The notes beneath the pieces were generated by a model. The model did no database searches. It was not told where the DNA came from and saw only the letters and a program-made list of their open reading frames with translations. Below, piece after piece: positions 1 through 53,275 of a stretch of DNA of 64,000 nt. Within the stretch, counting starts at the first letter, position 1; every line of letters begins with the position of its first letter. The translations under genes and the position numbers were made by a program. Source of the stretch: Bacteroidetes bacterium 2013_40CM_41_45 (GTDB lineage Bacteria; Bacteroidota; Bacteroidia; AKYH767-A; 2013-40CM-41-45); the NCBI GenBank assembly GCA_002215675.1, contig NGFH01000002.1, positions 76,975 through 140,974 of the forward strand, in the 5' to 3' direction.

Positions 1-425
1 AGGATAAAAACAAAATCAAATTATTTGGATTAGTTCAAGGTGATTTTAATAGTGATACTAAAGCATTTATTTTGGATTATTCAAATTATCTGGATACGAT
101 ATGCGGACACGGAGAAGGACAAAAAAAATTTCGTTTATTATCTGGACTCAGGATAATTTTTACAGTCCGAGAGTGGAAACTGAACGCGGGAATTGACGGT
201 TTAGAAAAAATTGCAGCAGCCAAAGAATTAAATTTTTCTGAAAGTTCTCTTAAAATAAAAACTATTGGATGGGGTCAAAATGACGCTGCAATAGATCAGC
301 TAGTATCAGTTCTTCAACAAGTAAGCGTTAAAAATTACGCGGATGCTAGCAAAGCCTTAATTGATTTAATGAAAATATATAAAACTGCAACAAATATAAA
401 ACCTGAGGTTATTCCTATTCTTTAA
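1..425 (+). CDS. C-terminal part of a hypothetical protein; the reading frame is open back to the window edge, so the gene starts upstream of nt 1 (listed ORF 72..425 begins at an internal TTG)
   Basis: In the frame of 72..425 there is no stop codon back to nt 3 (DKNKIKLFGLVQGDFNSDTKAFILDYSNY...). A terminator-like hairpin follows the stop. Confidence 0.45.
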   Translation, partial: DKNKIKLFGLVQGDFNSDTKAFILDYSNYLDTICGHGEGQKKFRLLSGLRIIFTVREWKLNAGIDGLEKIAAAKELNFSESSLKIKTIGWGQNDAAIDQLVSVLQQVSVKNYADASKALIDLMKIYKTATNIKPEVIPIL

Positions 426-476
426 AGTTGCTAAGCTATCTGGTAAATAAATAAGCGAATGAGGATTAAGCATTAA

Positions 477-572
477 GCCTACGCTCTGCGTGGGCTTTTG
501 TTTATCTTGTTCGTGGGCATACCAGTGCCTCTCAAGCGGATAACTCAGAATGTCCCACACGGATTTTTTTTA
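477..572 (-). repeat. Structured intergenic repeat element, copy 1; its reverse complement matches 53182..53275
   Basis: Shared blocks with copy 2: gtgggacatt, gaggcactggtatgcccac, caaaagcccacgca, and an A/T run at one end. Internal inverted repeats cgtggg/cccacg. Confidence 0.5.
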
Positions 573-2564: not shown

Positions 2565-5500
2565 ATGAAAATCTTTAAAGCCTTAACTTTATTATTGCTG
2601 TGCTTTCAATTAGCAAACTCCCAAACTATAGTTGAAGTCACAACTCCTGACATTCGATTTTGCGCAATCAATAATTGTGAGCTCGAAGTACAAAATAGTA
2701 GTAGTTCTTCCGTAACTTTTACTTTAGAGATAGATTTAGATGCATACCCTTATCCTTCAGCGCCAAGCGGCAAAGTAAAATTTGATACTCCCGCTTCCTT
2801 TTTTTTAACCTGCGCTGGATTGGGTATTCCTTCATTCAATCCTGCCCGAACTATTGCAACAGTTAGTATAAATCTTGCTCCAACTTCCACTTGTACCCTT
2901 TCTTATCGTGTGATTCCCACGACTTTGGCTATAAGCAGTCCTAATAATTTAAGAAATACATATGAAATAAATACCGTTAATGTATCGGCATCAGAAATTT
3001 TTTACAATGCTTTATTTCCAACAAATCAAATTATCTGTTCAAACCCAATCGCTAACGATGCTCATTTTATAGGCGAGATCTTCATGCGTGAATTACAGTT
3101 TACGAATACGAGCGCATCAGAGATAATGGACAAACCAATTAAGTTTACCGATACGAGAAGCAGTCTTGACAACCCCACCTGTATTCAAGTAACCGGAGTT
3201 AATTATTGGGATAATACATCTTCGAGTTGGCTACCCCTCTCCATGACAATAAATCCTTCTCCAAACAACCAAAACTTTAATGATTTTACTTTAACCGCAG
3301 CCGATATTAGTACAATTGCAACGGCAGAGCAATTATCTGGTAATGTATTTGGACCTGCGAGTTCTATAAGACTACAATTGGTTTATGAAGTTACCTGTTG
3401 CTTTACCAGCTTAATTACGTCTAGTTTTATGGCAACCTGGGCTTGCAATGTATCAGACCCAGCCATATATCAATATGGACCAGTGTCTAATTTTCCATCT
3501 TCCTGTAATTCCAATACTAGTTTAACTCTCCAAACAAATCCCGTTTTCGGGATACCTGATTTGGATGTTACAAGTTCTAGTATTGATAATAATTTTTGTT
3601 ATGGAATTGATCATACTGCAGATGCTACCGTAACAATAACTAACAATGGAACTGGACAAGCATCAAATATTGCATTTAATATTGATCAAGGTTCGAATAG
3701 TTTTACGCACATTATAGAATCTTTTCAGATTTCTTACAATGGAGGCCCTGCAAGTTCTATTACTCCAACTTTCCAAAGTGCCGCATATAGCAATGCTTGT
3801 GATGCTCCTGGAACGCACCACACTCGAATGGAATTTGCAATTCAAGCATTAAATGCGGGCGAGTATGCAACTTTGACGTGGCAAGACAGAACGTGCGCTC
3901 CAGCTGCAACCTGCCCAAGCGGTTCGCGTCTTAAAGATTCGTGGGGATACAAATTAAGCTTTGAGGATGATTGCGGAACTACATATCCGCCTTCAGCTAA
4001 TTATAGTAACTTGTTTAACGTCCAGAATCTTGGAAGTATGGTTACAGAATATAACGGCTTGTCGGATATAGACGATAACGTAGTTAACACTGCTTCCATT
4101 GATTTAAGTTCTGTTGCGGGTTTATGGCCAGCGGCTGATGAATCTACTAATAACAGGAGACTTGCTGTCGAAATTACATTGACCAACGATTTGATTTTTG
4201 AGCCAGCGTGTCCAATATCAAATAGCACCGGAACAATTCAGCTCTATTTATTTCCTAACTCAGTGTTCAATAACTCTAATATCTGTGTGACGGCTTCTCC
4301 TTATTCGCCTAGCAGTGTAACGGTGGTTTTCCCTTCTCCACCCCCGTGTTCAACGGGGACTTCAAAGACAATCCGTGCAGAATTTGAAATTGATAATTTC
4401 GGAACATGTAGTTTTGGTAACACGCTCAATGGCTTACACAATGCAAAATTGACATTTACATACAAAGGATTATGCGGACAGCCATTTCCTTTGTCAATGG
4501 ACCATATTACTGTACATGTGTTTTTTGTTCCAGACCAATCCTGTACTAATCCTGCAGATTTATTAGTTGGCTGCACAAATGCAGATGTCGGATTGCATTG
4601 TCCCGGTTGCATAAGAAAGGGTCTTCACAGCTTAGGTTATAGCATTCAAAGGGGACCCAACTCGTATGGCTGGCAGGATTGTGATAATGATAATTGGTGG
4701 GATCCTGATAACTCTTCAGGAAATGTACCAAAGGTCATTGATGCAGTTTACCGAGCAGCACATCCTTTTATAAAGACAAAGAGGGCAATGGTGGGTGATT
4801 TAATAGAAGGAGTTTTAACCACCAAGGTAGAGAATAATAGTAATTATGGACCAGTAAACACATCTTTGACTTTTACACATGCTTATTGGAAATCTGAATT
4901 TTCTCAGGGCGATGGAAATTTAACCCCTGTTGAATGTGAGATAGTTTTTACTCATCCTACTGACCCAATCTTTTCGCCTGGGCCGGTGACAATTATTATT
5001 CCCGCTACCGATTTCAATCCACAATCTTCATCTCCTGCAATAACATATAACATTGATTTCAGCATTAGCAGATGTAGTACGTTATTCAACCCTGCTTTAA
5101 ACCCCGGGTATTCATCCTTCCCAATTACCGATTTTATCGACAAGTTAGAGATTAAATTGATTCACAGATTTAGAGTTACTGGGAATGTGGGAACTACTAA
5201 TTTGCCATGTAACGTAACTAACACGGCATACCTTGGCTTAACTGCTGAAAGTGCAGGTTTTAATTTTTTAGATGATCCTGATAGTCCTACTAATCAAGTT
5301 CCAGCAATAACAACTCCGCCTGATCCACATCCACTCGACTATGACGCTTACTGTGCTAATCCAAACGGATTTCCTCCTTGCACTGATTTACAATGGTATT
5401 GTACACATTATAATGGCACGTTTACGTTGATTGGTTACGTGTTTCTTCCTTGGAGTGTGTCATCAGGCAGTGGCACCTACGATGTAGCATGTGGTCACCC

Positions 5501-8500
5501 TTCGGTATCCATGGATTCTCGTATCATGGTTGGTGAACCCGGTGCTTTGCTTACAGGTAGAAATCCATTTCCTTATGAGTATAGGCAATGGGTAAATTAT
5601 CATCAACTCGTATATGGAATACCATCGGGTTATGTCCCATTAGGCTGGGTTTATCCAGGTCCTGATTGGAATTCTGGTAGAGCTTGGTACCATCAATTTT
5701 ACAATTCAACCGGACCTACATCTGTTTTAGGAGTTCCTCTAGTTGTGGTAAGCTCGACAACAGCAACTATTAACTTTGATGCAACTAATTATCAACCAGG
5801 ATCTGATGATAATGGGCCTTGCGGTATTCTGTCAAACGGAACGGCACAGATTTTAAGACCTGATGATGATTTTTTCAATCAAGTAAAATATCAATTCTCT
5901 CCTGGATGCGATGCACCAGCCAGTACTACATCTACTTTCTACCAAGAAATGGATTTTATACCTTCCGGATTGCCTGCTGCACAAGGAGGACCAATGGGAA
6001 TTACTGCTAATATTGATTTTGCGACTGACAATCCTCAAATTACACCTAGCGGTACAACTTGGTCTGGCACAAGAAATTTGACGTACAACTTCGTTAATAA
6101 CCGTCCATTATTACAAGTGACGGGGGTGCCTACACCACCTGCACACTTCACAGCCTATCATCAGCAAGAGTGTATGACCTTCAATGTAGAAAACACAAAT
6201 TCAGGTCCAAACGCTGATGCAACACATGCATGGGTTGCATTTAATGTACCTTCTTCTCCTCAATGCGTTACCATAACTAGCATAGAGGTAGACAATGTTG
6301 TTTATCCGAATCCTACCGCGAATCAGCTTTACTATTTTTCAGGAGTATTTGAAAATAGTCAATCACGGCAAGTAACCATCTGTTTTACATACGACTGTAC
6401 CGTAAATTGCAATGCGAACAGGTATATTAATATTCTTACTGGGTGGGATTGCCGGAGAAGTGACGAGTCTGTACCACCTATTCTTACTGCGAATGACTAT
6501 ACTACTGTTACCACTTGTACTCCTACCACAAGACAGGTTCTAATTGATGGTGCAGACGCTCAATTTCAGGCGTCTCTTACCTGTCTGACACCACATCCTG
6601 CAGTTTGCAGCTCTGTTGATTATGAGCTTCAGGTTTCAAGTACATCATTTGGTGCACTCAATAGTATCGTTGTCACTGTAACTCTCCCTTGCTCAACAAT
6701 GGTTTATAATTCTACTGCAGGTAGCAGCTTTATTTTTAATGGTAATACGGATACGGGGCCCAATGCTCAACCGGTAGTGACGCCAGGAGTTCCCCAGATA
6801 CTGACATGGGCTATTAATAATGCCAACACTTACATTGCACAAAACGGACTTGAAGGACTATTGTATCCATCGGTCGGTAATAAATATTTCTTTAAGATTC
6901 GATTCAGCGTAAATACGGGATGCGCTCTGTGTTATCAAAATCGCTCCACAGTTCAGGTTGATTACAATACGAATTGTAACGTGCCGGGTCTTTGGACTAG
7001 AAATTTCAATCCTTTGCTCGAGCAAGGTTCTCCCTTCAATGATCTGAGCGTTACGCTTGGTTCTGGAAGCTACGATTTTTGTGCTAATGCAATTCCGGTA
7101 ACCGTAACTCTTACAAACAACAACAGCAACACATTGCAAAATAATAATTTCCTTGAAGTTACTATTCCTACTGGTTATACAGCAGACGGATTTAGTATAA
7201 CACCAACGTTGATTTTCGGACAAATGATAAGATGGAATTTAACATCTCTTTCAGCTATTACATTCAATGCTCACCCTGATGATTGTGGTCCTGAGAATAT
7301 TATTGCTAATATTTATGCTCGTGGCGAATACGCTTGCACTCCCACGAGTTGCCATATCGATGAACTGGAAAGTACATTTACGTTGCCTGTAACTCCGACA
7401 GCTCCAAGTATAAACATTACTAACTGTCCTTCTCAAGCTTTACTATGTAATGACCAGCCATACCAGTTCAACTCGGATGCTACTTGCGGATTTTATTCCT
7501 GGGACTTTGGAGACGGTTCTCCTTTAGCGACAATAGCAGCACCTAGCCATGTATACACTTCTGCCGGATCATATACAGTTACCTTGACAGTAAGCGGAAA
7601 TGCCTCTGGTGGTGGATGTACATCAACTGCTACATGTGTAGTAACTGTTGATTGTCCAGATAAGAACTGCGGATACTTTTGTACATACGAAAATACATTA
7701 TACTGTCACGGGACTCCTTGTACTAGCAACAGCAACTTCAGCATAAATCAATACGCTACATGGTGGTTAATGACCGCACCGCATTTCCAAAATGCTTTTC
7801 CTGCACCAAATTATTTAGTTATAGGCTGTCCAACTCATCATATAACTTTTAACAACGCAACTTCTGTTAGGTGTTTTCTTAAAAATTGCGGAAGCCCCTC
7901 AATTACTACGTGTGTTCCGTTATTTTTCCCGACCTATTTAAACCCTTCCTGCACTAGTTGCCCATCAGCTTGTTGTACAAACAGTGCGGTAAGTAATTCT
8001 TTAGTTCGCGAGGTAACGACACTTTCTCTAACGGTCAACTTTGATCTTGCGGACGATAATTTCAATCCTCTTACGCTCTATCATTTTGCCTTTTTACATT
8101 TAACTGGTGTACCGATCACCGATTTCTTTTATAACTGGCAAGTGTCAGACATACTAACATATTCCAATGATTACATTGGGAGTTGTTCCCCTTTGCCAAT
8201 CGGCTACAGTCAGGTAAATTTCAAAAACCTAATTCAGGCAATTAATGGTAGCCATAATAATTGTGCTGATAATGGCAATCAAAATGGACATCCTCATTTG
8301 TTTGATTGCGATGATGGAAACCGTTCTTTAAGTGCTCAAATTAATCCTGAAGATGGCTCTTGCTTGAATGATAATACAGCTATGATGACTGCTTGGGCAG
8401 TCGGTGGAACTCCACCTTTCAGTTACCTATGGAGTAATGGAAGTAGCTCTTACTTTATAGATAATCTTGCGGATGGAAAATATACAGTAACAATAACAGA

Positions 8501-11240
8501 TGCTAATAATGAAACTGCGACAGCTGAATCTTTTGTAAAAAGCTCTTCAAACATTTGTTGTAACGTCAGTGGAAATCCTTTCCCTCGCTTTCCTGATAAT
8601 ACAAATGTTCTTCCATCCACAGGGTATGATGTTAATTTCTTGCCAGCTGAAACAGTTGACTTTGAAGAGTCAATGACGTTGAGTGGTAATACACTTAATA
8701 TCATGGAAGGAGTTCAGTTTGTTGTAAAGGATGGTACCACTTTGGAATTGGATAATTGCGTGCTAAGTGCATGTGGCAGCATGTGGAAGGGAATTGTAGT
8801 TGAGTCTGGAGGAGTATTAATCCTCAAGAATTCAACCATTAAAGATGCCGAACGCGGAATTTATGGAGAGGATGGTTCCAAAATTTATGTTTACACAAGT
8901 CAGTTTGAAAATAATGTTGTAGGTATTGAAACCCCTGTGAATTCTGGTGGTACGTTCAACAGCATAGATTTCGTAATTGCAGGTATAACATTTGACTTCA
9001 GTGGAGCACTGCATGATGCATATCCAGGACAAGTTCCATTTGGCACAAAACCCAAAGCGGGAATCATCTTTAATAACATGATAGGTGCAATTGGTGATGA
9101 TGGTTATCCAGAAAATACTTTTTCTGATATGAACTGTGGTATTATCTCATACGCTTCTGTACTCAAAGTGACAAATAGTAAATTCCTGGAAATCCATAAT
9201 GAATATTTTTATTCAGGACAATTCATGGGTAGTGGAATTGCAGCAATTGGAGGTGACAAAGGATCATACTCGATTGAAGTTTACCCGTATCTGCTCCAAA
9301 ATCCTACAAGTCCGACCTTTAAATTATGCGATTATGGAGTTTACGGTGATAATAATATAAACGTAACCGTCACTGGATGTTCCATGTATTCAATGAATCA
9401 TGGTATTTATATTCAAAAATGCCAACTATCGAACCAAGTGGTTCTCAAAGAGAATGATATTTCGGCAACAAACATGGGAATACAGTTTTATGCAAACGAA
9501 GGTGCGGATTTATTATATGCGGGATACAACAATGTCGAAACGACGGATCTAAAAGGAGAATGCATAATTGCATATGAATCTGGATCAGGAAAAAATCACC
9601 TCGTTGTAGAAGAGAACACTTTAAGTTGCAATGGCTCTTCTTACGGAATAGATTTAATCGGTTGTTATTCTTCCACAGTTTATCATAACACAATTGATGA
9701 AGTTACAACGGCTATAAAAAACTTCACTGGTATTAGCATATCAGCTTGTAATGAACCTAATGTTTCATGTAATATCATTAACGGGTTAACTACGACCGAT
9801 CAGTTTTTAACATACGGAATCAAAGTAAATGTAACGGACAATGCAATTTTACACTGTAACAGCACAAACCTTACAACCTATGGAATTGCTTTCCAAGGTC
9901 CCTGTGTAACTGTAGATAATGTTAAAGACAATGAAATGAATGAACATTATGAAGGATTACATTTGAATAGCAATGCAATTATAGGTAAGCAGAATAATGG
10001 TGGTAATCGGTGGATAGGTCCATTCTCAAGTGGTTATGGTGCCAATAATTTGAATTATGCAGGAGGTATAAGCGTAACCGCTTCACTATTTATTGTTCAT
10101 CAAAGCCCAGTAACAGATTTTAATCCTTCAATACCGGCTTACGATGTAACTTGGTTTCAAGTGGACCCTGCAGGAGTGCCGTATTCATGCACATCGAGAA
10201 ATGAATGCCCGGAAAAATCTTCGGAAAAGAGTATGGTCATGAATCCAGAGGTGCTTGATTATTCCATCGCAAATGACGATTCATTGTCTGTGGATTTCAT
10301 TCCGGAAACCAAAAGCATGGGGAGGCAGTTTTTATACAAAAAGTTAACAGACGTGCCGGCATTACTCGACTCAAGTTCAGACCTCAACGATTTCTATTCT
10401 GCCTATTCCAGTTCTTCGGTGCAATCATTACAAGTTGTTCGTGATGGGTTGTTGGATTTTACAGATTATGGCATGAATTTATCTGATAGCTGTAATATAA
10501 TTGACAGCACTATGATTATTATTTCAGACAGTATCGCAGTTCTAGATAGCTTAATGAGTAGTGACACAATAAATGCACCCGCATATGTTGCGCAAAAGAT
10601 GAGTCTTAGGTCACAAGCAAATACACTGCAGGCAAGCATGAATGCAATAAGGGTACAAATGAAATCTGTACTTGAGGGAAAAATTTCGACGACCGATGCC
10701 ATTAATACAAGTGTTTCATCAGCGCAGTTACCAGAAAGCAATGAGCAAATCGTTAATGATATTTACCTGCAAACGGTCGCGCTCGGAAATTATGCTTTCA
10801 GCAGCAGTCAGGTTTCTTCAGTGTTAGAAATTGCCCAGCAATGCCCATACGCGGGAGGAAAAGCTGTTTATCGCGCAAGATCTCTATATAGGTTCATCGA
10901 TGAAACAATTGAATATGATGATGACAGTACTTGTCTTGTATTCGGTATTTACAGAAGGGGAAGCAACCAACCTTCAAGTGAAATTGAAACGGGGAACATA
11001 CTTCTGATTCCGAACCCCGCTAATAACCTTGTCACGGTTGTTTATCAGTCCGCATCAGAAGGGTCGTGTGACTTATACGTTACTGACATAACAGGCAATG
11101 TGATTAAGCAAATCGATATTCCGTGTGATAAAACGCGATTTGAATTTTCTGTAGAGGATATAAAGAACGGACTATACCTCGTTGATGTGCGAAATGAAGG
11201 ACAATCTATTGGACGTAGCAAATTGGCGATAATAAAGTAA
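2565..11240 (+). CDS. Giant (2891 aa) secreted cell-surface protein: Ser/Thr/Asn/Cys-rich N-terminal region, PKD domain, right-handed parallel beta-helix repeats, T9SS C-terminal sorting domain
   Basis: Signal peptide MKIFKALTLLLLCFQLANSQ. PKD-like WDFGDGSPLATIAAPSHVYTSAGSYTVTLTV. Beta-helix-type repeats (NSTIKDAERGIYGEDGSKIYVYTSQFENNVVGIE...). Por/T9SS C-terminal domain (...LIPNPANNLVTVVYQ...GLYLVDVRNEGQSIGRSKLAIIK). Confidence 0.8.
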   Translation: MKIFKALTLLLLCFQLANSQTIVEVTTPDIRFCAINNCELEVQNSSSSSVTFTLEIDLDAYPYPSAPSGKVKFDTPASFFLTCAGLGIPSFNPARTIATVSINLAPTSTCTLSYRVIPTTLAISSPNNLRNTYEINTVNVSASEIFYNALFPTNQIICSNPIANDAHFIGEIFMRELQFTNTSASEIMDKPIKFTDTRSSLDNPTCIQVTGVNYWDNTSSSWLPLSMTINPSPNNQNFNDFTLTAADISTIATAEQLSGNVFGPASSIRLQLVYEVTCCFTSLITSSFMATWACNVSDPAIYQYGPVSNFPSSCNSNTSLTLQTNPVFGIPDLDVTSSSIDNNFCYGIDHTADATVTITNNGTGQASNIAFNIDQGSNSFTHIIESFQISYNGGPASSITPTFQSAAYSNACDAPGTHHTRMEFAIQALNAGEYATLTWQDRTCAPAATCPSGSRLKDSWGYKLSFEDDCGTTYPPSANYSNLFNVQNLGSMVTEYNGLSDIDDNVVNTASIDLSSVAGLWPAADESTNNRRLAVEITLTNDLIFEPACPISNSTGTIQLYLFPNSVFNNSNICVTASPYSPSSVTVVFPSPPPCSTGTSKTIRAEFEIDNFGTCSFGNTLNGLHNAKLTFTYKGLCGQPFPLSMDHITVHVFFVPDQSCTNPADLLVGCTNADVGLHCPGCIRKGLHSLGYSIQRGPNSYGWQDCDNDNWWDPDNSSGNVPKVIDAVYRAAHPFIKTKRAMVGDLIEGVLTTKVENNSNYGPVNTSLTFTHAYWKSEFSQGDGNLTPVECEIVFTHPTDPIFSPGPVTIIIPATDFNPQSSSPAITYNIDFSISRCSTLFNPALNPGYSSFPITDFIDKLEIKLIHRFRVTGNVGTTNLPCNVTNTAYLGLTAESAGFNFLDDPDSPTNQVPAITTPPDPHPLDYDAYCANPNGFPPCTDLQWYCTHYNGTFTLIGYVFLPWSVSSGSGTYDVACGHPSVSMDSRIMVGEPGALLTGRNPFPYEYRQWVNYHQLVYGIPSGYVPLGWVYPGPDWNSGRAWYHQFYNSTGPTSVLGVPLVVVSSTTATINFDATNYQPGSDDNGPCGILSNGTAQILRPDDDFFNQVKYQFSPGCDAPASTTSTFYQEMDFIPSGLPAAQGGPMGITANIDFATDNPQITPSGTTWSGTRNLTYNFVNNRPLLQVTGVPTPPAHFTAYHQQECMTFNVENTNSGPNADATHAWVAFNVPSSPQCVTITSIEVDNVVYPNPTANQLYYFSGVFENSQSRQVTICFTYDCTVNCNANRYINILTGWDCRRSDESVPPILTANDYTTVTTCTPTTRQVLIDGADAQFQASLTCLTPHPAVCSSVDYELQVSSTSFGALNSIVVTVTLPCSTMVYNSTAGSSFIFNGNTDTGPNAQPVVTPGVPQILTWAINNANTYIAQNGLEGLLYPSVGNKYFFKIRFSVNTGCALCYQNRSTVQVDYNTNCNVPGLWTRNFNPLLEQGSPFNDLSVTLGSGSYDFCANAIPVTVTLTNNNSNTLQNNNFLEVTIPTGYTADGFSITPTLIFGQMIRWNLTSLSAITFNAHPDDCGPENIIANIYARGEYACTPTSCHIDELESTFTLPVTPTAPSINITNCPSQALLCNDQPYQFNSDATCGFYSWDFGDGSPLATIAAPSHVYTSAGSYTVTLTVSGNASGGGCTSTATCVVTVDCPDKNCGYFCTYENTLYCHGTPCTSNSNFSINQYATWWLMTAPHFQNAFPAPNYLVIGCPTHHITFNNATSVRCFLKNCGSPSITTCVPLFFPTYLNPSCTSCPSACCTNSAVSNSLVREVTTLSLTVNFDLADDNFNPLTLYHFAFLHLTGVPITDFFYNWQVSDILTYSNDYIGSCSPLPIGYSQVNFKNLIQAINGSHNNCADNGNQNGHPHLFDCDDGNRSLSAQINPEDGSCLNDNTAMMTAWAVGGTPPFSYLWSNGSSSYFIDNLADGKYTVTITDANNETATAESFVKSSSNICCNVSGNPFPRFPDNTNVLPSTGYDVNFLPAETVDFEESMTLSGNTLNIMEGVQFVVKDGTTLELDNCVLSACGSMWKGIVVESGGVLILKNSTIKDAERGIYGEDGSKIYVYTSQFENNVVGIETPVNSGGTFNSIDFVIAGITFDFSGALHDAYPGQVPFGTKPKAGIIFNNMIGAIGDDGYPENTFSDMNCGIISYASVLKVTNSKFLEIHNEYFYSGQFMGSGIAAIGGDKGSYSIEVYPYLLQNPTSPTFKLCDYGVYGDNNINVTVTGCSMYSMNHGIYIQKCQLSNQVVLKENDISATNMGIQFYANEGADLLYAGYNNVETTDLKGECIIAYESGSGKNHLVVEENTLSCNGSSYGIDLIGCYSSTVYHNTIDEVTTAIKNFTGISISACNEPNVSCNIINGLTTTDQFLTYGIKVNVTDNAILHCNSTNLTTYGIAFQGPCVTVDNVKDNEMNEHYEGLHLNSNAIIGKQNNGGNRWIGPFSSGYGANNLNYAGGISVTASLFIVHQSPVTDFNPSIPAYDVTWFQVDPAGVPYSCTSRNECPEKSSEKSMVMNPEVLDYSIANDDSLSVDFIPETKSMGRQFLYKKLTDVPALLDSSSDLNDFYSAYSSSSVQSLQVVRDGLLDFTDYGMNLSDSCNIIDSTMIIISDSIAVLDSLMSSDTINAPAYVAQKMSLRSQANTLQASMNAIRVQMKSVLEGKISTTDAINTSVSSAQLPESNEQIVNDIYLQTVALGNYAFSSSQVSSVLEIAQQCPYAGGKAVYRARSLYRFIDETIEYDDDSTCLVFGIYRRGSNQPSSEIETGNILLIPNPANNLVTVVYQSASEGSCDLYVTDITGNVIKQIDIPCDKTRFEFSVEDIKNGLYLVDVRNEGQSIGRSKLAIIK

Positions 11241-11318: not shown

Positions 11319-13040
11319 ATGTCTGACTATATGAAAAGGAAAATTATTACTATTCTGTTTGTTAGCTTATCATTCAATTCCTTCTCACAAGCGCCAAATT
11401 GGCTCTGGAGTAAAGCATGCGGAAGCACTGGAGATGATTCAGGGTTGTCAATTGCTCTTGATGCTTCCGGCAATATTTACACTACTGGTTACTTTGAAGG
11501 AACTGTTGATTTTGACCCCGGTGTAGGCGTATTTAATTTAACTTCTGCAGGATCGTATGATATTTTTATATCCAAACTAGACCCTTCAGGAAACTTCGCG
11601 TGGGCAAAAAGGATGGGTGGAGTAACTGATGATTGGGGACTGTCCATTGCTCTTGATGCTTCCGGTAATATTTACACTACTGGTTATTTTGGAGGAACCG
11701 CTGATTTCGACCCAGGTGCAGCCATATTTAATTTAACTTCTCTAGGAGCTTATAATATTTTTGTATCAAAGTTAGATCCATCTGGCAATTTCGTTTGGGC
11801 AAAAGGAGTGGGCGGAACGGCTATTGATGCCGGCTATGCCATTTCCTTGGATAGTTCAAATGCGATAAACGTTGCGGGATATTTTACAGGAACCGTAGAC
11901 TTCGACCCAGGTGTTGGAGTGTTTAATTTAAGTTCGGGGAGTAATAATTTTGCTAACGCTTTTATTTTGCGTTTAGATAATGCTGGCAACCTTTTATGGG
12001 CAAAGGCATTTGAAGGAATAAATTATTGTTCCATTTATTCTATGACGCTTGCAGCTGGTAATATTTACACGACTGGGGAGTTCATTGGAACTGTTGATTT
12101 TGATCCGGGGTCAGGAACATTTAATATGTCTTCAGTGGCAAACAATGATATTTTTATTTCAAAAATAGATTCTTCCGGAAATTTCGTATGGGCAAAAAGC
12201 ATCGGTGGTACTGATACCGATGAAGGAATTTCGCTGACTACAGATTTGCATGGAAACGTATATACCACGGGTTACTTCGGAGGAACCGTTGATTTCGATC
12301 CAGCAGCCGGAGTATTTAATTTAACTTCAACAAGTGGCAGTTATGACATATTTATTTCCAAACTTGATACTGCAGGTAATTTCAAATCAGCAAAAATGAT
12401 TGGTGGGATCTATAATGATGTTGGTAAAGCGATTATAACTGATTCCTCCGACAACATTTATATCACAGGTTACTTTTCTGATACTGCAGATTTTGACCCA
12501 GGGATAGGTGTATTTAATTTAATTTCTCAAGCGGGAAGTGCCGATATATTCATTTCAAAATTAGATAGTGCATGTAATTTTTTATGGGCGAAAGCAGTCG
12601 GAGGAATTAATGACGAAGCAAGTCAAGATATAGCATTGAATTCATCGGGCAATACTTTTGTTATAGGATATTTTTACAGCCCATCACTCCTATTTAATAC
12701 AACAACTTTAATTAATACAGACAATCAGGGTAACACTTCTGATATGTTTATTGCAAAGCTTGATAATATAATAACTGGTATTGCAAACCTAAAAAACAAT
12801 GACGGCATATTTATTTACCCAAATCCTGTTTTAGAAAATATTACCGTGGTAAATGGTTTGAGTTATTCGGAGAAAAGTTATTTAACTATTTATAATTCTT
12901 TCGGAGAGAAGATTATTGAACAGGAAATTAAATCTTCAAAAATGAACATTGATTGTAGCCATCAACCATCTGGAATTTATTTCGTCACGATCACCAACCA
13001 AGAAGGAAATAAGATTGTACAGAAAATTATTAAGATGTAA
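11319..13040 (+). CDS. SBBP (beta-propeller) repeat protein with T9SS C-terminal sorting domain; start may be the ATG at 11331 (MKRKIITILF...)
   Basis: About 9 repeats of the SGNIYTTGYFxGTVDFDPGxGVFNLTS...DIFISKLDxSGNFxWAK type. Signal peptide. C-terminal IFIYPNPVLENITVV...GIYFVTITNQEGNKIVQKIIKM. Confidence 0.75.
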   Translation: MSDYMKRKIITILFVSLSFNSFSQAPNWLWSKACGSTGDDSGLSIALDASGNIYTTGYFEGTVDFDPGVGVFNLTSAGSYDIFISKLDPSGNFAWAKRMGGVTDDWGLSIALDASGNIYTTGYFGGTADFDPGAAIFNLTSLGAYNIFVSKLDPSGNFVWAKGVGGTAIDAGYAISLDSSNAINVAGYFTGTVDFDPGVGVFNLSSGSNNFANAFILRLDNAGNLLWAKAFEGINYCSIYSMTLAAGNIYTTGEFIGTVDFDPGSGTFNMSSVANNDIFISKIDSSGNFVWAKSIGGTDTDEGISLTTDLHGNVYTTGYFGGTVDFDPAAGVFNLTSTSGSYDIFISKLDTAGNFKSAKMIGGIYNDVGKAIITDSSDNIYITGYFSDTADFDPGIGVFNLISQAGSADIFISKLDSACNFLWAKAVGGINDEASQDIALNSSGNTFVIGYFYSPSLLFNTTTLINTDNQGNTSDMFIAKLDNIITGIANLKNNDGIFIYPNPVLENITVVNGLSYSEKSYLTIYNSFGEKIIEQEIKSSKMNIDCSHQPSGIYFVTITNQEGNKIVQKIIKM

Positions 13041-16631: not shown

Positions 16632-16653
16632 TGTATTGTATGTTTATTTGTCA

Positions 16654-16686
16654 GCCTACTCTTTGGCAGGATTTTCGGCTTACTCC
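16654..16686 (-). promoter_or_regulatory. Conserved 33-nt upstream element, copy 1 (minus-strand sense GGAGTAAGCCGAAAATCCTGCCAAAGAGTAGGC); 23 nt upstream of the start codon of 16161..16631
   Basis: Near-identical copy at 17351..17382 in the same position relative to another start codon. Contains the internal direct repeat GAGTA(A/G)GC. Confidence 0.45.
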
Positions 16687-17087
16687 TATTTTTCGATATA
16701 TTTTTGCTCCTCATAGTTATCTGAGACAATGAGAGGGCAAACAGCGCATGCATCTGCACCGCTTTGATAGTACCATCTACAATCCGAACGGATGCCACAT
16801 TTAGGTAATCTTATTTTTACACTTATCCTTTCTGACTGCTCCATAACAGCTTCGATAATGCCGCATCCATTTCCCGTCCATTGCCTGCACCCGTTTTCTG
16901 CACAACGATTTGAGAAGCGAAATCTTTTTTCAGGTGATCGACCTTTGTGAGCAGTTGCAATAAACTCTTTAGTAACAGGTAACGGTTGCGATAGGAAGTT
17001 AACTGTACCCTGTGCTGTCACAATACCTATCACCTGAGCACCCTCATCACAGACAGCACTTGGGCATGACTTTTTTTCTTCTTCCAT
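16686..17087 (-). CDS. Cysteine-rich hypothetical protein (133 aa; 9 Cys including C-x4-C and C-x2-C pairs), possibly metal-binding
   Basis: SCPSAVCDEG...CAENGCRQWTGNGCG...KCGIRSDCRWYYQSGADACAVCP. Three-nucleotide gap to the upstream 79-aa gene, which suggests translational coupling. Confidence 0.5.
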   Translation of the reverse strand: MEEEKKSCPSAVCDEGAQVIGIVTAQGTVNFLSQPLPVTKEFIATAHKGRSPEKRFRFSNRCAENGCRQWTGNGCGIIEAVMEQSERISVKIRLPKCGIRSDCRWYYQSGADACAVCPLIVSDNYEEQKYIEK

Positions 17088-17330: not shown

Positions 17331-17350
17331 TTGATTTAGTTTTATATGTC

Positions 17351-17382
17351 GCCTACTCTTTTCAGGATTTTCAGCTTACTCC
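17351..17382 (-). promoter_or_regulatory. Conserved upstream element, copy 2 (minus-strand sense GGAGTAAGCTGAAAATCCTGAAAAGAGTAGGC); 21 nt upstream of the start of 17091..17330
   Basis: 28/32 identical to copy 1 and in the same position relative to the start codon. Confidence 0.45.
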
Positions 17383-17436
17383 GTTGAATAAAATGTAATT
17401 TTATTTAAGATTAATAGTTCAAGGTCGCTATTCATT

Positions 17437-22066: not shown

Positions 22067-25000
22067 TTACATCTTCACAATCTTCTTCGTCACAGATTTC
22101 TTTCCTATATTTATTTCAATATAATAAATTCCTGGAGCCTTTTCTCGAAGGTCAACTTCATGCTTCGTTTCATTTTTTAAATCTTTCTGTTCACTGACAA
22201 TGCTACCTATTACATCAAATATTTTCAGTGACCGTTTGTCTTTATTGTTAGATTTTATTTCCACAGTAAATATTCCTTCAGTTGGATTGGGATAAATTGA
22301 AATCGTATTTAAACCATTCAATTCATTTATACCAACAGTGCATGGATTAATATTGATTGAATCTGAAATGGTGGAACAGCCAAAAGAATTGGTTACAATA
22401 CCGTAGTAATAACCATCACCAACACATAATAATGTATCGTCAGTTCCCGGAGTTGGACTACTTTGATAATACCATTGAATAGTATCTGAAGAAGTTACAG
22501 GAGAGATAATAATAGTATCATTGATATGAATTAATGGTAGAAGAATAGGTGATAGATTAACGCTTACCGTCACTTGCGCTGTTGCCGTACAACCAAGAGC
22601 ATTACCTATTACAGTGTAAGTTGTAGTCGTTGTCGGATTAGCTGTAACACTTACGCCACTTGGTGCACTCAATGCCGTTGCAGGACTCCATGTATATGTG
22701 TTCGCCCCTGCCGCTGTCAAGAGTGTAGATTGTCCCGAACAGTAAGTTACATTCGGAGAAACAGTTGTTACTGGAGTTGGGTTGACTGTTACAGTCACCT
22801 GTGCTATTGCTATACAACCATTATTGTCGGTTCCAGTAACTGTATATGTTCCACTATCAGCAAGAGTAATATTTGTTATGATTGGATTCTGCAGTGAAGA
22901 AGTGTAACTGTTTGGACCTGTCCACGAATAAGAAGTAGCGCCATTCGATATGAGATTCAACACTACTCCTTCGCAAATTATGTTGTTGTTACCAGCTGTT
23001 ACAACTGGATTCGGATTTATGGTAACAATTGTAATTACAGCGGCAGAGCAGCCGTTAGAATCGATTACAGTTACTGAATATATTCCCGTATCTGCAAGAG
23101 TGACTGTTGGTATTGCAGGATTCTGAACCGAAGAAGTGTAACTGTTTGGACCTATCCACGAATAGAAAGTACCTCCGCTTGCCGTAAGATTCAAAGTTGT
23201 TCCTACGCATATAGCACTGTTGCTTCCCGCAATAGCGTTAGGTGGAGCATTTATTAAAATAGAAATTGAATCTGCAACATGGCATCCCAAGCTGTCTGTA
23301 ATTTCAAGTATCACAACAGCGGAAGAATCTATTTGAATTGTTTGGGATGTTGAGCTATCACTCCAATGATATGTATTTGCGATGGGCGATGTTAATTGAA
23401 TGCTACCACAAACGGTCGTGTCATTCCCTAAATTTAAGCTAAGACCATTTTGAACAAATACGATTGTTGTATCAATCATTTCAACATTCCCTGCACTATC
23501 TAAAGAATAAAATTCAATTACATTCAATCCTGCATTAGTGACGGTGACGGTTGTATCTGAAATCCAGTTGCCATTATTTATTCTATATCTTGTTTCAGAA
23601 ACTCCGGAATAATAATCATAAGCAGAAAGTGAAAATGTGTAATTACAAGAGTTGGTAGTGTCAACGTTATTACTGATAGTCAATGGGGGTGTTTTATCAA
23701 TCATAACTTTGTAGCTACAAGTCACATCAGAAAGGTGACCAACTGAATCCTGTGAAACAATATGAATATACCAAATGCCATCCGACAACCTTGTGTTGCT
23801 TGTATCCATGGCAGGAATAGTAGTAATAATTAAAGTGTCTGAATTAACTGAGAAGCCGGTTTGATTAACCTGGTATGCAGAATCATGATTAAGCATAAAG
23901 TAGTATCCAACAACTGTAGAAGTGTCGACAGGATCAACCCAATTTAAAGCAATACTGTCATTTTGATTCCATTGATTTTGGTTAGGATGGGTTGGCGATA
24001 TCAATAGTGGGCAAGGTGGATTATCCAAGTCAATATATACCGTAATTTCATTAGACCAGCTTCCAATATTACCAACAAAGTCAATATCTCTGACTTTAAT
24101 ATGATGCGTGCCTGTTGTTAAAGTAGGGTGATGCGAAAAATTAAATCCGATATTAATCGGAGCTTGATTATTTATTTCAACTTCAAAAAAATCTATCCCG
24201 CTTCCAACATCTCCTGGATTCAACCATGCAAGGTAAGGTGAATCATGGGTAGTCCATAACGTGCCACAGTGGTACTCTGCAATAAGTGGTGCATTAGGCG
24301 GTGTGTTATCATATTTCATTTCACCAACTCCAGGTTGACTTAAATTTCCAAAACTGTCTTTTGCCCTGACATAAACATAACTGATGCCCTCAATATTAAC
24401 AGTAAGATTTACTGAAAGATTTGTTCCAACATTTATCCACGGGTTGCCATTGACCGAGTATTCATAAGTGACACTTCCGCTATTATCAAACACCTGATTC
24501 CACGATACAATAAAATTAGGAGAAGCAGACCATGATGAAGGATTTACCGTTACAACCGGAGACGATGGAGGAATTAAGTCTGGAATAAAAATATTTCGTG
24601 ACGCGGAATTATTTGTGTCATTGCTTTCCGTAATTTGACCGAAAGGATCAACTGAAATGGTTACAATATGGTAACCAACTGGATAATTAAATGTGAAAAT
24701 AACAGTATCAATCTGTCCGGCTGAAAAATTTAAAATCAAACTGTCAATGACATAAGAGTTTATGACAAAATGAATCTTGACACCATTCGCTGACCCTGCA
24801 CCGTTATTTTGAACAATTGCAGAAACAGTATTTGTGATTGAATCCACATGAGTATAAATAATATTCTGCGCCAGCACTTCTAAGTCAGGTAACGTATCAT
24901 GAACCTCTATTGCAGTAGAAGCATAGGCAGTGAGTAATGAATTATCTGTTGCTGTTATGCCGATTGTATAAGTTCCGTTTGTGGGTGTGTTCAGAGCTAC

Positions 25001-28000
25001 CCGCCATGTTGCTGATGAAGAATCAAATTGCATTGTGTAGTTGCTGCTTTGGTAATTTGCAACAACAGAAATTATAGAATCATTATCGGTTATGTATGAT
25101 TCAACATTTACAATTCCTCCTTCATAATTTGGGGAGGACGTGTGAATGAAATGAATGACCGGTGGTTCGTTATCTTGTACTGTTACCTGTATTGAATTGG
25201 AATTATTTAAATCATTGCTTTCAGCAATCTGATTTTGCGGGTCAATGACTGCCATTAGTTGATGCGTTCCGACTAAAGATTGCCAATGAAGAACTAAAGG
25301 TATTGTATCAAAAGCGTCCATAGAATTGATCACAATTGAGTCAACAATTTGGCTATCGGAAAGCAGATAAACGACTACATTGGAAACACTCGATATAGAA
25401 TAATTAGAAACGACAAGCGAAAATGCTGCGTTTGAATTTGGAAGGACAGAGTAGTTAGTTGAAATGGTATTCACTGCAAGGTCAGGCAGAGAATCTACGA
25501 CAGTAAATTGAACAAAAGCTGCTGATTGGAAACCGTTCGAATCTGTGAACAAAACTGGCAAGGAATAATTTCCGGTTTGTGTCGGATAAATCTGCACAGA
25601 GTATGCACTGTCTAATGAACTGAAAGGCATTAAAGTATTGAGATTATTCCAAAGAACAGTAACTGATGCATTAGTTGTTGCCGGAGCAGAAACAAGTTGA
25701 ACATTCGTTGGCGAACCAAGCGATACTACAGCAGGTATTGCTTGTGCGTTGAGTAAGTAAGTAGGAACAGGAACACAAAATTGATGGTTTACCGAGACAG
25801 AGTTATTTGCTTCGTTTGTTTCTAAGATTGAATTGGCACTATCTATTACTACATTGAAAAGGTGACTTCCACAAACGACTTGCCAGGGGAAAGAAAATAC
25901 TAAAGACGAATCGTGAAGAATATTTGCCGACTGATTTCCAATGTTGAATCCATCAACTCTCAGAATTACGTTTACATTATTTAAATCTATGCTTCCAGAA
26001 TTCCTGACTTTTGCTTGTATTAAAACATTACTTCCTGAACCCGATGATGAAGGAACAAAAAGAAAATCCGAATTGAATACTTTTAAGTCCGGTAAGTTTT
26101 GCAATACTTGAATGCTGATTGTAGTAGAAGATGAAAGACTATTTACATCGTAAGCGGTGATGACAGCATTTGAAGTTCCTACTGTATTCGCATTTATGTA
26201 GCCCTCATAGAAAGTAGTAAACGAGTTATAGGTCAGTAAAACATTTTGGCTTTGCCAATTAACAATCACTGATGATATACCTGTTGAATCAATCGTATTC
26301 ACCTGAAAGAAAACCGGGTTACTAACATGTGCCGGATTAGGGGTGGCAGATGCCTGTAAAATTGATGGCGGATAACTGTCATGGACAACAATATACCGAA
26401 TACCAGTGTTATTGTTTTCATCCGATTCAGCAATGACATCTAACGGGTCTGCTTTCACACCAATAGTATCTTGTCCCAACTGTGCAAGCCAATTAAAATT
26501 TAACTGTGCTTGCGAGAGAGCACCTAATGTAACCGTTTGTGTCTGGAATGGCACTCCATCTATAACCAAAGCAACGTCCGCATTTGCAATTGTCTGGTTG
26601 CTATTATTTTTTACAATAGCGGACAAGTGAACCGTATCAGAAATAAACAATTCGGATGGGGAAATAATAATTCCATTATTTTGAATTTCTAAGTCAGGCG
26701 TTGACGAATAGACATTAACGTATAGGATAGTATCACTTGTTAATCCGCTTCGGTCCATTGCAATGACCCGAATAGGAAATAAACCAACTGAAGTTCCGGC
26801 ATTCACCATTACCGAAAAGTTATTGCCCGAAGTATTATTCAATGAAAATGTATTGTTCTGATAAGTACATTCAACTGAAGAAATAATATCGTTATCAGTT
26901 ACTGTAGCATTAACATTAAAATTTCCATTCTGTAAAACATTGAATGGAGTGACAACCGCTGACAATATTGGTCTAATGGTATCAATAATGTAATAATTGA
27001 TAGACAGACTATCTAACTTCAGCTGGCCTGCGCTCGAAGAATACAATTTTACTGGAATAAGGATTGGACCCTGACCTGTTGAATTTACAGAAATGTAGTT
27101 GTTAAGTTCAGTAGCAAAATCGGGCGTAGTTTGATTATATTGATAAACTCCAGAATAAACCCACTCATAAATTCCATTATCTGCAACATCAATCTTGGGA
27201 CCAAGTGGATAAACCTGCTGGTAACTTGGCTGGGAAATAGTAAATGTTTTAAGAGTAATTAGCTCCCACAATCCCGAAGTATTATTTTTAATATAGAAAT
27301 TAACTTTCCAAATACCCGGTATTGATGCAGGTACATTATTAGCAATATTTATCCAACTCCATGCTTTTAAACTTCCATACCAAGCATTATTACCAGGGTC
27401 AGGGGTTGTAGTTGTAACCTGTGAATATAGGGTATTATCAGGTTTTAACCATTCCCATTTTAATTGCAAAGATTCAGCTATGTCATTCAGGGAAACCCAA
27501 CAAAAAGCTGTTGTATCCGATATTCCTGAAAATGTAGTTACACCAGGAGAAGTAGGCAAATAGGAAGAAACATCTTTACATAGAGTAATTGATGCTGCAT
27601 CGGGAAAGGTTGAATTATAAACGGTATCCTTAACAAAATAACTTACAGTATAATAGTTTGTTGTTTCATAAGTGAAGTTGCCACCCACAATATCTTTTGA
27701 AAAATATTTTGTATAGAACCTGCCCTTATCAATTTCAGAACCCCAAGTCCAAGCTTTATACCATGCAAAAGTTGAGGCGTTGCTAATACTATCTTCTAAC
27801 CACCAATTAAAAAAATTATCGGAATCGTAATTTTCCCAACGCCAACCTAAAAAATTAGTTGCTAAATTATCAAAGTACAACCAATGATATACGGTTTCGC
27901 CTCTTCTAAAAACATTCTTTTCAGTTATACAATCATAAGGAGTAGAAGACATAACACTATCAGCCGTGGTAGCCCTCACAAAACGATAATTCCCTCTCGG

Positions 28001-33338: not shown

Positions 33339-33864
33339 TTTACACTTGAAGTAAAATTTAGTCGAGACAGGTAATAAAAAATATTTACAGAATCATTCTC
33401 GCCAAATAACATTTCATCCATCTTGCCGGTAAATGGTTTAGAACATTCTCCTACAATAATACAAAATTTCTGAGCACTAACCCTTCAACATCCTCACATT
33501 AAAATAAATTATCAGGTTTTATTATACAGGATAACACCTTGCATTGCAAGTATGTTTTACGTCTTGGTGAATACTGCCGTCCGCACTTACTTTTCCCCAC
33601 CCTTGACTTGCAATTAAATTCAATGTATGGTATACTATACCAGTAGGATTATCAATTAAATATTACCCATTGTCCCGAGAGGATCGGGCCGAAAAGGCTT
33701 GATGCAAGCAATGGCTTTTGAAGATTGCATATTCCACTCTGAAGTGTAGTATGTAGTTGTTGTACGCCTTACTGCGGACAACGCCCCCGACGGGGGAAGG
33801 AAGGTACCTTCGGGTATTATTCGCCAAAAGCCCACTTGACTTGCATCAGTGGGCTATTTGGTTT

Positions 33865-34794
33865 ATGAAATTAAGTGAAGCAATAGAAAAATTTTCAAAG
33901 TGGCGAACATTTAAGGTTAAGAAATGTACTGTCAAAGGGTACGAGCTTATCCTGAAACAATTCTGCGTATTTGTCCGCAACTGTGATATTGAAAGAGTAC
34001 GACTGGAAGATGTTACATCTTGGTTCAGTCTTTTGAACGATCTTCAGTGGCAGCACAATTCATTCATCACAAAGGCGCAGGCGCTCAGAAAGTTTTTCGA
34101 ATTCTACAAGATGCAGGGTTATTTGGTCCTTGAACCGAACCTTATTCCTCTTCCATCGAAGGAGTACAACATTCCCCGTGTTGCTTCAGAAGAAAATTAT
34201 CGCAAATTATTATCAGCATTTCCTGTTAAAACGAACGACCCAAGGCACATAAGAAATAGGGCAATCGTAATGCTTTTATGGGATACCGGAGCGCGAAACA
34301 GTGAAATTCTTGCGCTTGATGTAAATGATATGGATACAGAGAAAATGCATGCAGTTATAAAGACAGAAAAATCCAAAGGCCGCAGGCCATTCCGGGAAAT
34401 TTTTTGGACTGAAGAAACTAACAAAGCTTTGCTTGCCTGGATTACTAAAAGAGAATTTTTAAAGAAAACAAAAATGCAGCATATGGATGAATGTTTGTTT
34501 CCCTCTATCTGTTCTTCAGCAGGACTAAATTTAAGCGGAAGAAGATTAACCAATAAAGGTGTCGCGGAGTTTTTAAGACGATATTCGAACCGTGCCGGTA
34601 TTCCTTATATAAATGCACACAGTTTCCGCCATCACATGGGTCACGATATTATTTCCCAAGGAGGAAGCGCAGCAGATGTGATGAATATACTTGGTCACGC
34701 TACGCTTGCCAGTTCTTCGATTTATACAATGATGACTGGAAAAGAATTGGAGAATCGCTACAACATATTTAAAAACAGAAAATCGTCTGTGTAA
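33865..34794 (+). CDS. Tyrosine site-specific recombinase/integrase (the ORF-track start at 33757 is probably leader sequence; preferred start MKLSEAIEKF)
   Basis: LWDTGARNSEILAL (Arg box), HSFRHHMGHDI (H-x-x-R) and LGHATLASSSIYT (catalytic Tyr region). Confidence 0.8.
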   Translation: MKLSEAIEKFSKWRTFKVKKCTVKGYELILKQFCVFVRNCDIERVRLEDVTSWFSLLNDLQWQHNSFITKAQALRKFFEFYKMQGYLVLEPNLIPLPSKEYNIPRVASEENYRKLLSAFPVKTNDPRHIRNRAIVMLLWDTGARNSEILALDVNDMDTEKMHAVIKTEKSKGRRPFREIFWTEETNKALLAWITKREFLKKTKMQHMDECLFPSICSSAGLNLSGRRLTNKGVAEFLRRYSNRAGIPYINAHSFRHHMGHDIISQGGSAADVMNILGHATLASSSIYTMMTGKELENRYNIFKNRKSSV

Positions 34795-36801: not shown

Positions 36802-37045
36802 ACGATTCAGAAACGAAATAGATGAAGCTGGGAGTTTTGAGAAATTAATGATTAAGAAAAGAGCCCTAGTTCGAAGGGACGGACAGAAATGTATCGCTTA
36901 CTACTACGATATGGAAAGATACAAAAGAATACACTTAAACGGAGTTTATGAATCGCTCCATCCCATGTACGAAACCGTCATGCCTTACGTTTTCTGGAGC
37001 GATATGTACGAGATATTACAACAGAGCGAAGCTAAAAAAATATGA
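36761..37045 (+). CDS. Hypothetical protein (94 aa) overlapping both flanking methyltransferase genes
   Basis: ORF whose stop overlaps the start of the Dam-like gene (ATGA). Confidence 0.35.
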   Translation: MNENTFPFTKEQLERFRNEIDEAGSFEKLMIKKRALVRRDGQKCIAYYYDMERYKRIHLNGVYESLHPMYETVMPYVFWSDMYEILQQSEAKKI

Positions 37046-42978: not shown

Positions 42979-42982
42979 GATT

Positions 42983-44101: not shown

Positions 44102-44104
44102 TTT

Positions 44105-53181: not shown

Positions 53182-53275
53182 TAAAAAAACTGCGTGGGAC
53201 ATTTCACCTGCCCGCGACAGAGGCACTGGTATGCCCACACACGAAACAAGCAAAAGCCCACGCATTGCATGAACG
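53182..53275 (+). repeat. Structured intergenic repeat element, copy 2 (reverse complement of the 477..572 copy)
   Basis: Closing stem tgcgtggg / cccacgca encloses ~65 nt. On the minus strand it ends ...gtcccacgcagttttttt. Confidence 0.5.

Follow-up and report, generated by a model that had tools for sequence, protein, structure and literature searches.

The DNA analysed here, referred to as the window, is a 64,000-nt stretch of contig NGFH01000002.1 (positions 76,975 to 140,974 of the forward strand; assembly GCA_002215675.1) from Bacteroidetes bacterium 2013_40CM_41_45. It contains two intergenic copies of a structured element, both carried by a ~65-kb mobilisable element integrated in a tRNA-Leu gene. 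An original prediction, made from the letters alone, had described them as ~95-nt copies in opposite orientations sharing long identical blocks. Both copies are indeed present at those sites, copy 1 on the forward and copy 2 on the reverse strand, and share the exact 20-mer GTGGGCATACCAGTGCCTCT (513–532 + and 53219–53238 −, respectively; expectation from shuffling, 0) as well as GCGTGGGCTTTTG and AATGTCCCAC. The proposed identity of about 75% agrees with the 76% obtained from a MAFFT pair alignment including the flanks, and was 69% over the 477–572 span in a model-based alignment. A covariance model run over the 64 kb with filters off detected exactly two copies, copy 2 with 126.6 bits at 53183–53328 (−) and copy 1 with 83.1 bits at 422–569 (+), the third-best score being 16 bits. 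The boundaries, however, had been misplaced. Homology between the copies begins at ~439 in copy 1 and ~53310 in copy 2, and the unit conserved in copy 2 and its homologues reaches ~110 nt further upstream than had been described, to ~53383. The 95-nt stretches are the 3' part, about half, of a longer RNA unit of ~200 nt, which in copy 2 extends from a predicted RNA 5' end at ~53383 to a U-run at 53183.

The unit is ordered as a promoter-like box, a variable 5' domain, a rod made up of helices P0 to P3, and a tail ending in the U-run. The features of the two window copies are as follows.

53390–53419, − strand: copy 2 promoter-like region of the Bacteroidota −33/−7 type, with TTTGCA (53414–53419) 16 nt upstream of the TAnnTTTG box TATATTTG (53390–53397)
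53322–53383, − strand: copy 2 5' domain (inferred boundaries), with an A-rich stretch, a small hairpin region GAAUUGCGUUAAGCUGAUUC (53323–53342) and UCUCG
53314–53321, − strand: copy 2 closing helix P0, 5' strand CGCGACAG, partner at 53213–53220
53298–53314, − strand: copy 2 block B GAAAACUGGUAAGUUUC, near-invariant, with ACUGGUA (53304–53310) as the 5' strand of P1
53238–53296, − strand: copy 2 rod interior, with P2 5' strand (53276–53296), P3 hairpin (53256–53274; GUUCAUGC/GCGUGGGC) and P2 3' strand (53238–53255)
53220–53237, − strand: copy 2 core UGGGCAUACCAGUGCCUC, invariant, in which UACCAGU (53225–53231) pairs with block B (P1) or, alternatively, contributes to the apical hairpin GGGCAU-ACCA-GUGCCU
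53183–53220, − strand: copy 2 tail, with P0 3' strand CUGUCGCG (53213–53220), segment a'' (53199–53212), segment b'' CCCACGCA (53191–53198; 3' base of the terminator) and U-run (53183–53189)
439–571, + strand: copy 1 as a whole, its rod comprising UCUGGUA (439–445; P1 5' strand), P2 5' strand (455–476), P3 hairpin (477–495) and P2 3' strand (496–513)
within 439–571, + strand: copy 1 core (514–531), tail (532–553), b'' CCCACACGG (554–562) and U-run (564–571)

The copy 2 RNA is predicted to start at about 53380–53384. TAnnTTTG is the −7 promoter motif of Bacteroidota, and such a box was present at the matching upstream position in 20 of 41 homologues, where its frequency in the window would predict ~2. 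In Bacteroidales homologues the 5' domain consists of two hairpins linked by AUAUAUAACAUA. Copy 1 is a 5'-truncated paralogue that begins 14 nt past the stop codon (425) of the final mobilisation-module gene and has no GAAAA, P0 5' strand, 5' domain or promoter box. An unrelated copy in another locus (L022:7097) loses homology at the same point as copy 1 (439), 5' of CUGGUAA, and both have AUCUGGUAA there. This common break could be a recurrent recombination or truncation point, or could mark a distinct short RNA form. Separately, the P3 hairpin with a following UUUUG was flagged as terminator-like in both copies (53256–53274, −; 475–497, +); the short U-run after this hairpin is not kept in other clades.

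The original prediction had raised the possibility of a wider RNA family, and ~50 homologues were found in total, from genomes of Bacteroidota and Ignavibacteria, from one plasmid and from circular ‘plasmid’ records. In a scan of one genome per species the exact 18-mer TGGGCATACCAGTGCCTC matched 48 loci, ~40 of which were intergenic homologues in Bacteroidia, Flavobacteriia, Chitinophagia, Ignavibacteria and one metagenome-assembled genome labelled Lentisphaerae. Seven matches outside Bacteroidota were discarded as due to chance or to coding sequence, such as pyruvate phosphate dikinase genes. Alignment of the loci revealed a second near-invariant block, block B (GAAAACUGGUAAUUU), with conservation extending far upstream of the equivalent of position 477. 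Block B (15 nt) and the core (18 nt) are near-invariant from Ignavibacteria to Bacteroidales. Further members came from PLSDB and IMG/VR records, those in PLSDB being reached by blastn only with a Bacteroidales copy as query; with a window copy as query no match was obtained among plasmids or phages. The divergent members are circular records of Phocaeicola, Parabacteroides, B. ovatus and B. finegoldii, the Rhizosphaericola plasmid pB3-10 and three IMG/VR contigs. Viral records were scanned twice. The canonical core gave five loci and a single true member, L053 (L052 proved to be a coding or chance match); the variant core gave five further loci, three of which (L071, L072 and L075) fit the model. 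A metagenome scan with a gapped pattern leaving P1 free gave 14 chance matches, with no family member and no further P1 variants.

Rfam 15 gave no match at either window copy at the gathering threshold or at an E-value of up to 10, and none at the element in 17 homologous loci at the gathering threshold or in eight at an E-value of up to 5. Literature searches turned up no description of this RNA family. The best-supported reading is that the element represents a previously undescribed RNA family, specific to mobile elements, whose kind of regulator, a terminator/antiterminator leader, is already known. A Crocinitomicaceae contig (L016) carries two near-identical tandem RNA copies (937–1079 and 1544–1686) 607 nt apart, each followed after 49–51 nt by an open reading frame (ORF) of ~100 codons, and the core of one copy reads CGGGCA, not UGGGCA. 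The B. finegoldii copy (L076:5081–5235) is degenerate, with 43 bits and an A-A mismatch in P1; an annotated hypothetical coding sequence covers the 5' part of the RNA, and a gene of the dihydrofolate reductase (DHFR) family still lies downstream.

When the homologues were folded one by one the same picture was obtained throughout, with the sequence from block B to the core forming one long rod. In P1, which encloses P2 and the P3 hairpin, ACUGGUA from block B is paired with UACCAGU in the core, and P0 is formed by the 7–8 nt directly 5' of GAAAAC pairing with the 7–8 nt directly 3' of GCCUC. For the rod statistics 51 members were realigned with a covariance model, R1. Across these sequences 88.8% of cells were paired compared with 36–42% for slid partners, and the covariation score was 0.589 compared with 0.12 or less, with 33 of 42 pairs changing on both sides. 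P0 was paired in 97% of cells and six of its eight pairs co-vary by changes on both sides. The variable pair of P1 is U:A in 43 sequences, C:G in seven and unpaired in none; divergent members combine block B GAAAACUGGCACUUUUC with core UGGGUAUGCCAGUACCUC, in which the U-to-C change of block B is matched by an A-to-G change of the core. Predicted stability favoured the rod over the long terminator in almost every member. Two further interpretations of the conserved segments were ruled out. Block B is not a −7 promoter box or a mimic of one, given that its U-to-C change tracks the pairing partner in the core, and a conserved leader peptide ending in UGG UAA has no conserved start or frame, its flank co-varying as helix P0.

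In the second fold the 3' half of the rod, made up of the P3 3' strand GCGUGGG and the P2 3' strand, pairs with the tail, whose sequence resembles the 5' strand of the rod. The resulting stem is capped by GGGCAU-ACCA-GUGCCU and followed by the U-run. In copy 2 the rod segment 53238–53263 doubles as the 5' half of this stem. The outer stem and T-run noted earlier for copy 2 (TGCGTGGG/CCCACGCA) are genuine and form the base of the terminator fold, and in both window copies the GCGUGGG/CCCACGC stem is followed by 7–8 U, as in an intrinsic (Rho-independent) terminator. A U-run of at least 4 was present in 43 of 45 members. On an alignment that had not been fitted to the terminator fold, 83.8% of its cells were paired compared with 33–57% for slid partners, with a covariation score of 0.31 compared with 0.155 or less. 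The basal helix was 84% paired, and 11 of its 12 pairs change on both sides. The variable pair of the apical hairpin is C:G in 42 sequences, U:A in eight and unpaired in none; C-to-U and G-to-A changes in the core match each other in the hairpin, and one member (L078) has the hairpin change alone. Covariation supports both folds, with compensatory changes in each. The original suggestion of a complex terminator hairpin or small RNA was right in proposing a structured, terminator-like element acting at the RNA level, but the hairpin it described is only one of two competing folds.

Because P1 and the apical hairpin draw on the same nucleotides, only one of them can exist at a time. Each has its own compensatory changes, so both mutually exclusive states appear to have been selected. 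Native partners folded better than cross-clade chimeras in 41 of 41 sequences for the rod and 40 of 41 for the terminator. The strand carrying the T-run folded with z = −3.3 and −3.8 in the two window copies, and the opposite strand with z = −1.8 and −0.9. Across the family, all 42 of the sequences compared folded better on the forward strand. The reverse strand of copy 2 scored 15 bits, and G-U pairs outnumbered A-C pairs by 186 to 42 and 250 to 34. The excess of G-U pairs and the forward-strand folding show that the structure belongs to one strand.

Strand-specific hairpins would also be compatible with a DNA-level signal acting in single-stranded form, such as a single-strand origin or priming site, or a Frpo-like promoter active on the transferred single strand. 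The element adjoins primase/helicase, Rep, relaxase or integrase genes, and the 5' domain of many members has a TA(A/G)CG motif, which we take to resemble CS-6 (TAGCGT) of ssoA origins. Such a signal is very unlikely here. It would leave unexplained the RNA-level features, namely a stem that leads into a U-run, promoter boxes upstream and a co-oriented start codon only a short way downstream, and selection for two exclusive folds is not expected of an origin. A Frpo-type promoter on the strand of the element would presumably transcribe away from the co-oriented genes.

The original prediction placed both copies just downstream of a gene in the same relative orientation; in the family the upstream gene is of mixed orientation, and the constant relation is with the next downstream ORF, which is co-oriented in 36 of 38 loci. 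An ATG-initiated ORF of at least 50 codons starts no more than 60 nt after the U-run in 26 of 40 loci, with a TAnnTTTG box in between in none of these. Most downstream genes start 15–62 nt past the U-run, with no room for another promoter. Copy 2 and most homologues occupy a leader position, in which a promoter is followed by a co-oriented ORF without a promoter box of its own; copy 1 does not.

Upstream of the element lie backbone genes of mobile elements, encoding tyrosine integrases, RteC, Prim-Pol, RadC, primase, Rep or relaxase. In three loci (L001, L019 and L047) the upstream gene is a tyrosine integrase with a tRNA gene just beyond it, in L035 a tRNA gene lies ~235 nt upstream, and on plasmid pB3-10 a replication initiator precedes the element. 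Annotated RefSeq records have RteC, helix-turn-helix (HTH) and primase/helicase genes upstream and no RNA annotated at the element; here the RNA unit occupies the interval from a backbone gene to a lone ‘dihydrofolate reductase family’ gene, beyond which comes a convergent gene. L042 has the order RteC, the RNA, a DHFR-like gene, two GNAT genes, DUF3795, a methyltransferase, excisionase-like HTH_17 genes and ArdA.

These neighbourhoods bear on the suggestion that the element is a dispersed repeat of the REP (repetitive extragenic palindromic) or MITE (miniature inverted-repeat transposable element) type and a genome-wide marker. Two imperfect, hairpin-capable copies in one window would be compatible with a repeat. 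However, the unfiltered search found no more than these two in 64 kb, genomes mostly hold one or two copies, and each of four complete genomes or chromosomes (L006, L008, L024 and L026) has exactly one exact-core match. Moreover, orientation is fixed relative to the next gene, divergence tracks clades with compensatory changes, and the edges of the unit carry no terminal inverted repeats or target duplications, its ends being the promoter box or 5' domain and the U-run. A dispersed repeat is therefore excluded for practical purposes, unless the source assembly were to contain tens of copies. The two copies are likewise not remnants of one duplicated gene with its 3' untranslated region, since the proteins encoded upstream of them are unrelated and ~50 homologues exist.

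The reading favoured here, which has about an even chance of being correct, is that the family consists of cis-acting terminator/antiterminator leaders that gate transcription into cargo at the junctions between backbone and cargo. The RNA would be transcribed toward the accessory genes with two exclusive folds available to it, and the decision point for the predicted switching would be reached as the core emerges from the polymerase, when pairing of the core with block B would give read-through and local folding of the core would give a stop. In the former case P1 would form and P0 would then lock the rod, which occupies the 5' half of the terminator, and the polymerase would read on into the next gene. 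In the latter, local folding of the core would nucleate the terminator, with the tail capturing the 3' half of the rod, the core forming the apical hairpin, and the GC-rich base and U-run bringing about termination. As the 5' strand of the rod is made first and the rod is the more stable fold, read-through is likely to be the default. Block B would remain single-stranded for ~75–90 nt of transcription and is for that reason the likely site at which a putative factor, whether protein, RNA or small molecule, biases the choice. The presumed purpose is to gate backbone transcription into cargo.

Several observations weigh against this reading. The greater stability of the rod means that termination would need kinetic control or a factor. 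As few as one or two evolutionary events may account for the compensatory changes in P1, and the same holds for those in the apical hairpin. The downstream products are diverse, with RibD_C/DHFR-like proteins the commonest (10 of 35 proteins scanned and four later loci, L068, L076 and L077 by RefSeq annotation and L053 by length only) alongside TonB-dependent receptors, DNA methylase, ResIII/HsdR, HTH proteins, a response regulator, PKD, DUF6272 and adhesins. This diversity argues against a metabolite-specific riboswitch; the regulon appears incoherent, and the downstream genes do not seem to point to an effector. In the window itself, the gene downstream of copy 1 has its own promoter box at 788–795 and copy 1 has none, which makes copy 1 more like a 3' terminator of the mobilisation operon. 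Finally, a local tail hairpin in many, although not all, members could terminate transcription with the rod intact, and termination would then be constitutive and its product a discrete small RNA.

The last point leads to the principal rival, a stand-alone small RNA of the mobile element that acts in trans, with the invariant blocks serving as a host-protein site or target seed and the co-orientation a by-product of operon-like packing. A promoter box and a strong terminator frame a discrete ~200-nt unit, the local hairpin is compatible with the rod in many members and would give a stable rod-plus-terminator RNA, and the near-invariance of the 15- and 18-nt blocks across two phyla suggests contact with conserved host machinery. 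The diversity of downstream genes is also in its favour, and there is a known precedent in rteR (Rfam RF04181), a regulatory small RNA encoded by elements of the CTnDOT type. Nevertheless, a small RNA of this kind is rather doubtful as the full explanation. The short distance to most downstream genes, with no promoter box between, makes them dependent on read-through; the terminator fold that destroys the rod co-varies together with the rod in all clades, which a plain small RNA does not need; and no complementary target sites for block B or the core were found within the window.

A constitutive, elaborate terminator or insulator that separates backbone from cargo without switching, possibly also an RNase III or stability element, would account for the position at the junction, for promoterless copy 1 directly after the last mobilisation gene and for the conserved U-run. 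Long double-stranded rods are typical RNase III substrates. This explanation is unlikely, given that a plain terminator needs neither the invariant 15- and 18-nt blocks, nor a co-varying P0, nor a promoter just upstream, and that downstream genes without a promoter of their own would stay silent.

The terminator/antiterminator leader proposed here shares several properties with riboswitch and attenuator platforms such as the T-box and PyrR leaders. As a 5' leader it separates a promoter from a co-oriented ORF, one strand is common to its two exclusive folds, of which one forms an intrinsic terminator, and conserved sequence is concentrated in the non-terminator fold. It differs in having a near-continuous rod as the presumed sensor in place of a multi-helix junction, in a terminator 3' strand that approximates a copy of the rod 5' strand (a three-strand design), in its location on mobile elements before unrelated cargo, and in showing no evident ligand or regulon logic and no match to an Rfam family. 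The closest likeness is to the plasmid attenuators (pT181 repC, pIP501/pAMbeta1 repR and pCF10 prgQ/Anti-Q), which are also encoded by mobile elements and in which an upstream ‘preemptor’ strand competes with the distal strand of the terminator for its proximal strand. In these systems the default co-transcriptional fold permits read-through and a trans factor on the exposed upstream strand forces termination; their leaders precede rep or conjugation genes, with a countertranscript promoter on the other strand. The present element, in contrast, lies downstream of Rep, primase or integrase genes and before cargo. A cursory search for a conserved promoter box or countertranscript on the opposite strand found none, and the reverse strand is poorly structured.

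Other comparisons are more distant. The put RNAs of HK022 and the EAR element are likewise promoter-proximal structured RNAs of a mobile element or long operon, and conservation in the present family could similarly mean contact with RNA polymerase. However, this element has its own terminator and no similarity to them in sequence or structure, and shows no sign of processive antitermination. The rteR RNA of CTnDOT resembles it as a non-coding RNA of RteC-type Bacteroides conjugative elements but differs in sequence and place; the rteR model misses the element, its sole weak match lying 5.7 kb away in L042. Unlike 6S RNA, the element has unpaired ends (a 5' domain of ~60–90 nt and the terminator tail), its would-be bubble is the co-varying P1, and its distribution is patchy and on mobile elements; the 6S models gave no match in the Rfam scans of the window and the homologous loci. 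In the large-scale screen of Fremin & Bhatt 2021 (PMC8040213), HMP2_4078 is an unnamed 109-bp ‘palindromic’ candidate, described as mostly from Bacteroidetes and near D5 N-terminal (primase) and phage-integrase domains. The neighbourhood is of the same kind and, to judge from the description, the two might overlap; HMP2_4078, however, is reported to occur on both strands and to lack a terminator, in contrast to the present element, which is strand-specific with a terminator.

A broader form of the leader reading, advanced only tentatively, is that the family is an undescribed class of mobile-element riboregulator of Bacteroidota, a universal ‘cargo gate’ positioned where backbone meets cargo, in which block B and the core would sense a signal of the host or element and couple any accessory genes to it. 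If so, the signal could be a host protein or RNA that is conserved; alternatively the leader, once terminated, could act in trans by way of its exposed UACCAGU loop (copy-number sensing). Integrative and conjugative elements spread defence, resistance and surface-protein genes in Bacteroidota, including gut Bacteroides, Phocaeicola and Parabacteroides. One conserved RNA module before unrelated cargo would be a general control point, a marker of the boundary between backbone and cargo and a candidate new RNA-effector pair. The three-strand design, with natural compensatory changes in both helices, makes the hypothesis amenable to reporters and compensatory mutants.

In the window, the mobilisable element that carries the two copies is delimited by the following features, listed with the gene downstream of copy 2.

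58080–58164, − strand: tRNA-Leu (CAA), right attachment site, with a ~58-nt direct repeat of its 3' part
56544–57962, + strand: integrase adjoining tRNA-Leu, at the right end of the element
52232–53137, − strand: gene downstream of copy 2, with an LPG_synthase_C/DUF2156 domain; TTG start 45 nt past the U-run and no TAnnTTTG box between

The matching ~58-nt repeat of the tRNA-Leu 3' part lies 6.6 kb left of the window start (L083:2589–2648). The two RNA copies are not themselves attachment-site repeats, as they are inverted and the real attachment repeat is the 3' part of tRNA-Leu. The left end of the element, most of it left of the window, encodes a coupling protein, a relaxase and a 277-residue ORF ending at 425, directly before copy 1. 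Copy 1 follows the mobilisation module, 7 kb in from the left end, and copy 2 follows the integrase module, 4.7 kb in from the right end; both are oriented inward, toward the cargo. The gene downstream of copy 1 encodes a collagen-like protein.

The interior of the element encodes methylases, GmrSD, a DUF4007/PAPS-reductase system, ArdC and giant secreted proteins. A defence-type run at 41941–49320 (−) comprises a protein kinase, a GmrSD-like nuclease, a PAPS-reductase-like protein, a 1082-residue STAND-type NTPase and DUF4007, and looks like a phosphorothioation-related (Dnd/Ssp-type) system. A second integrase is found at 33757–34794 and two DNA methylases at 35806–37833. The giant cargo ORFs lie at 2565–11240 (2891 aa) and 22067–32785 (3572 aa). 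Six tandem repeats of 195–198 nt (11433–12527) lie within an ORF (11319–13040) for a secreted beta-propeller (SBBP) protein with a type IX secretion system (T9SS) sorting tail. Two matches to the Rfam DUF805b motif (16653–16688 and 17350–17384, both −), with 39.8 and 42.2 bits against a gathering threshold of 35.6, flank a small ORF (16686–17087, −) inside the mobile element.
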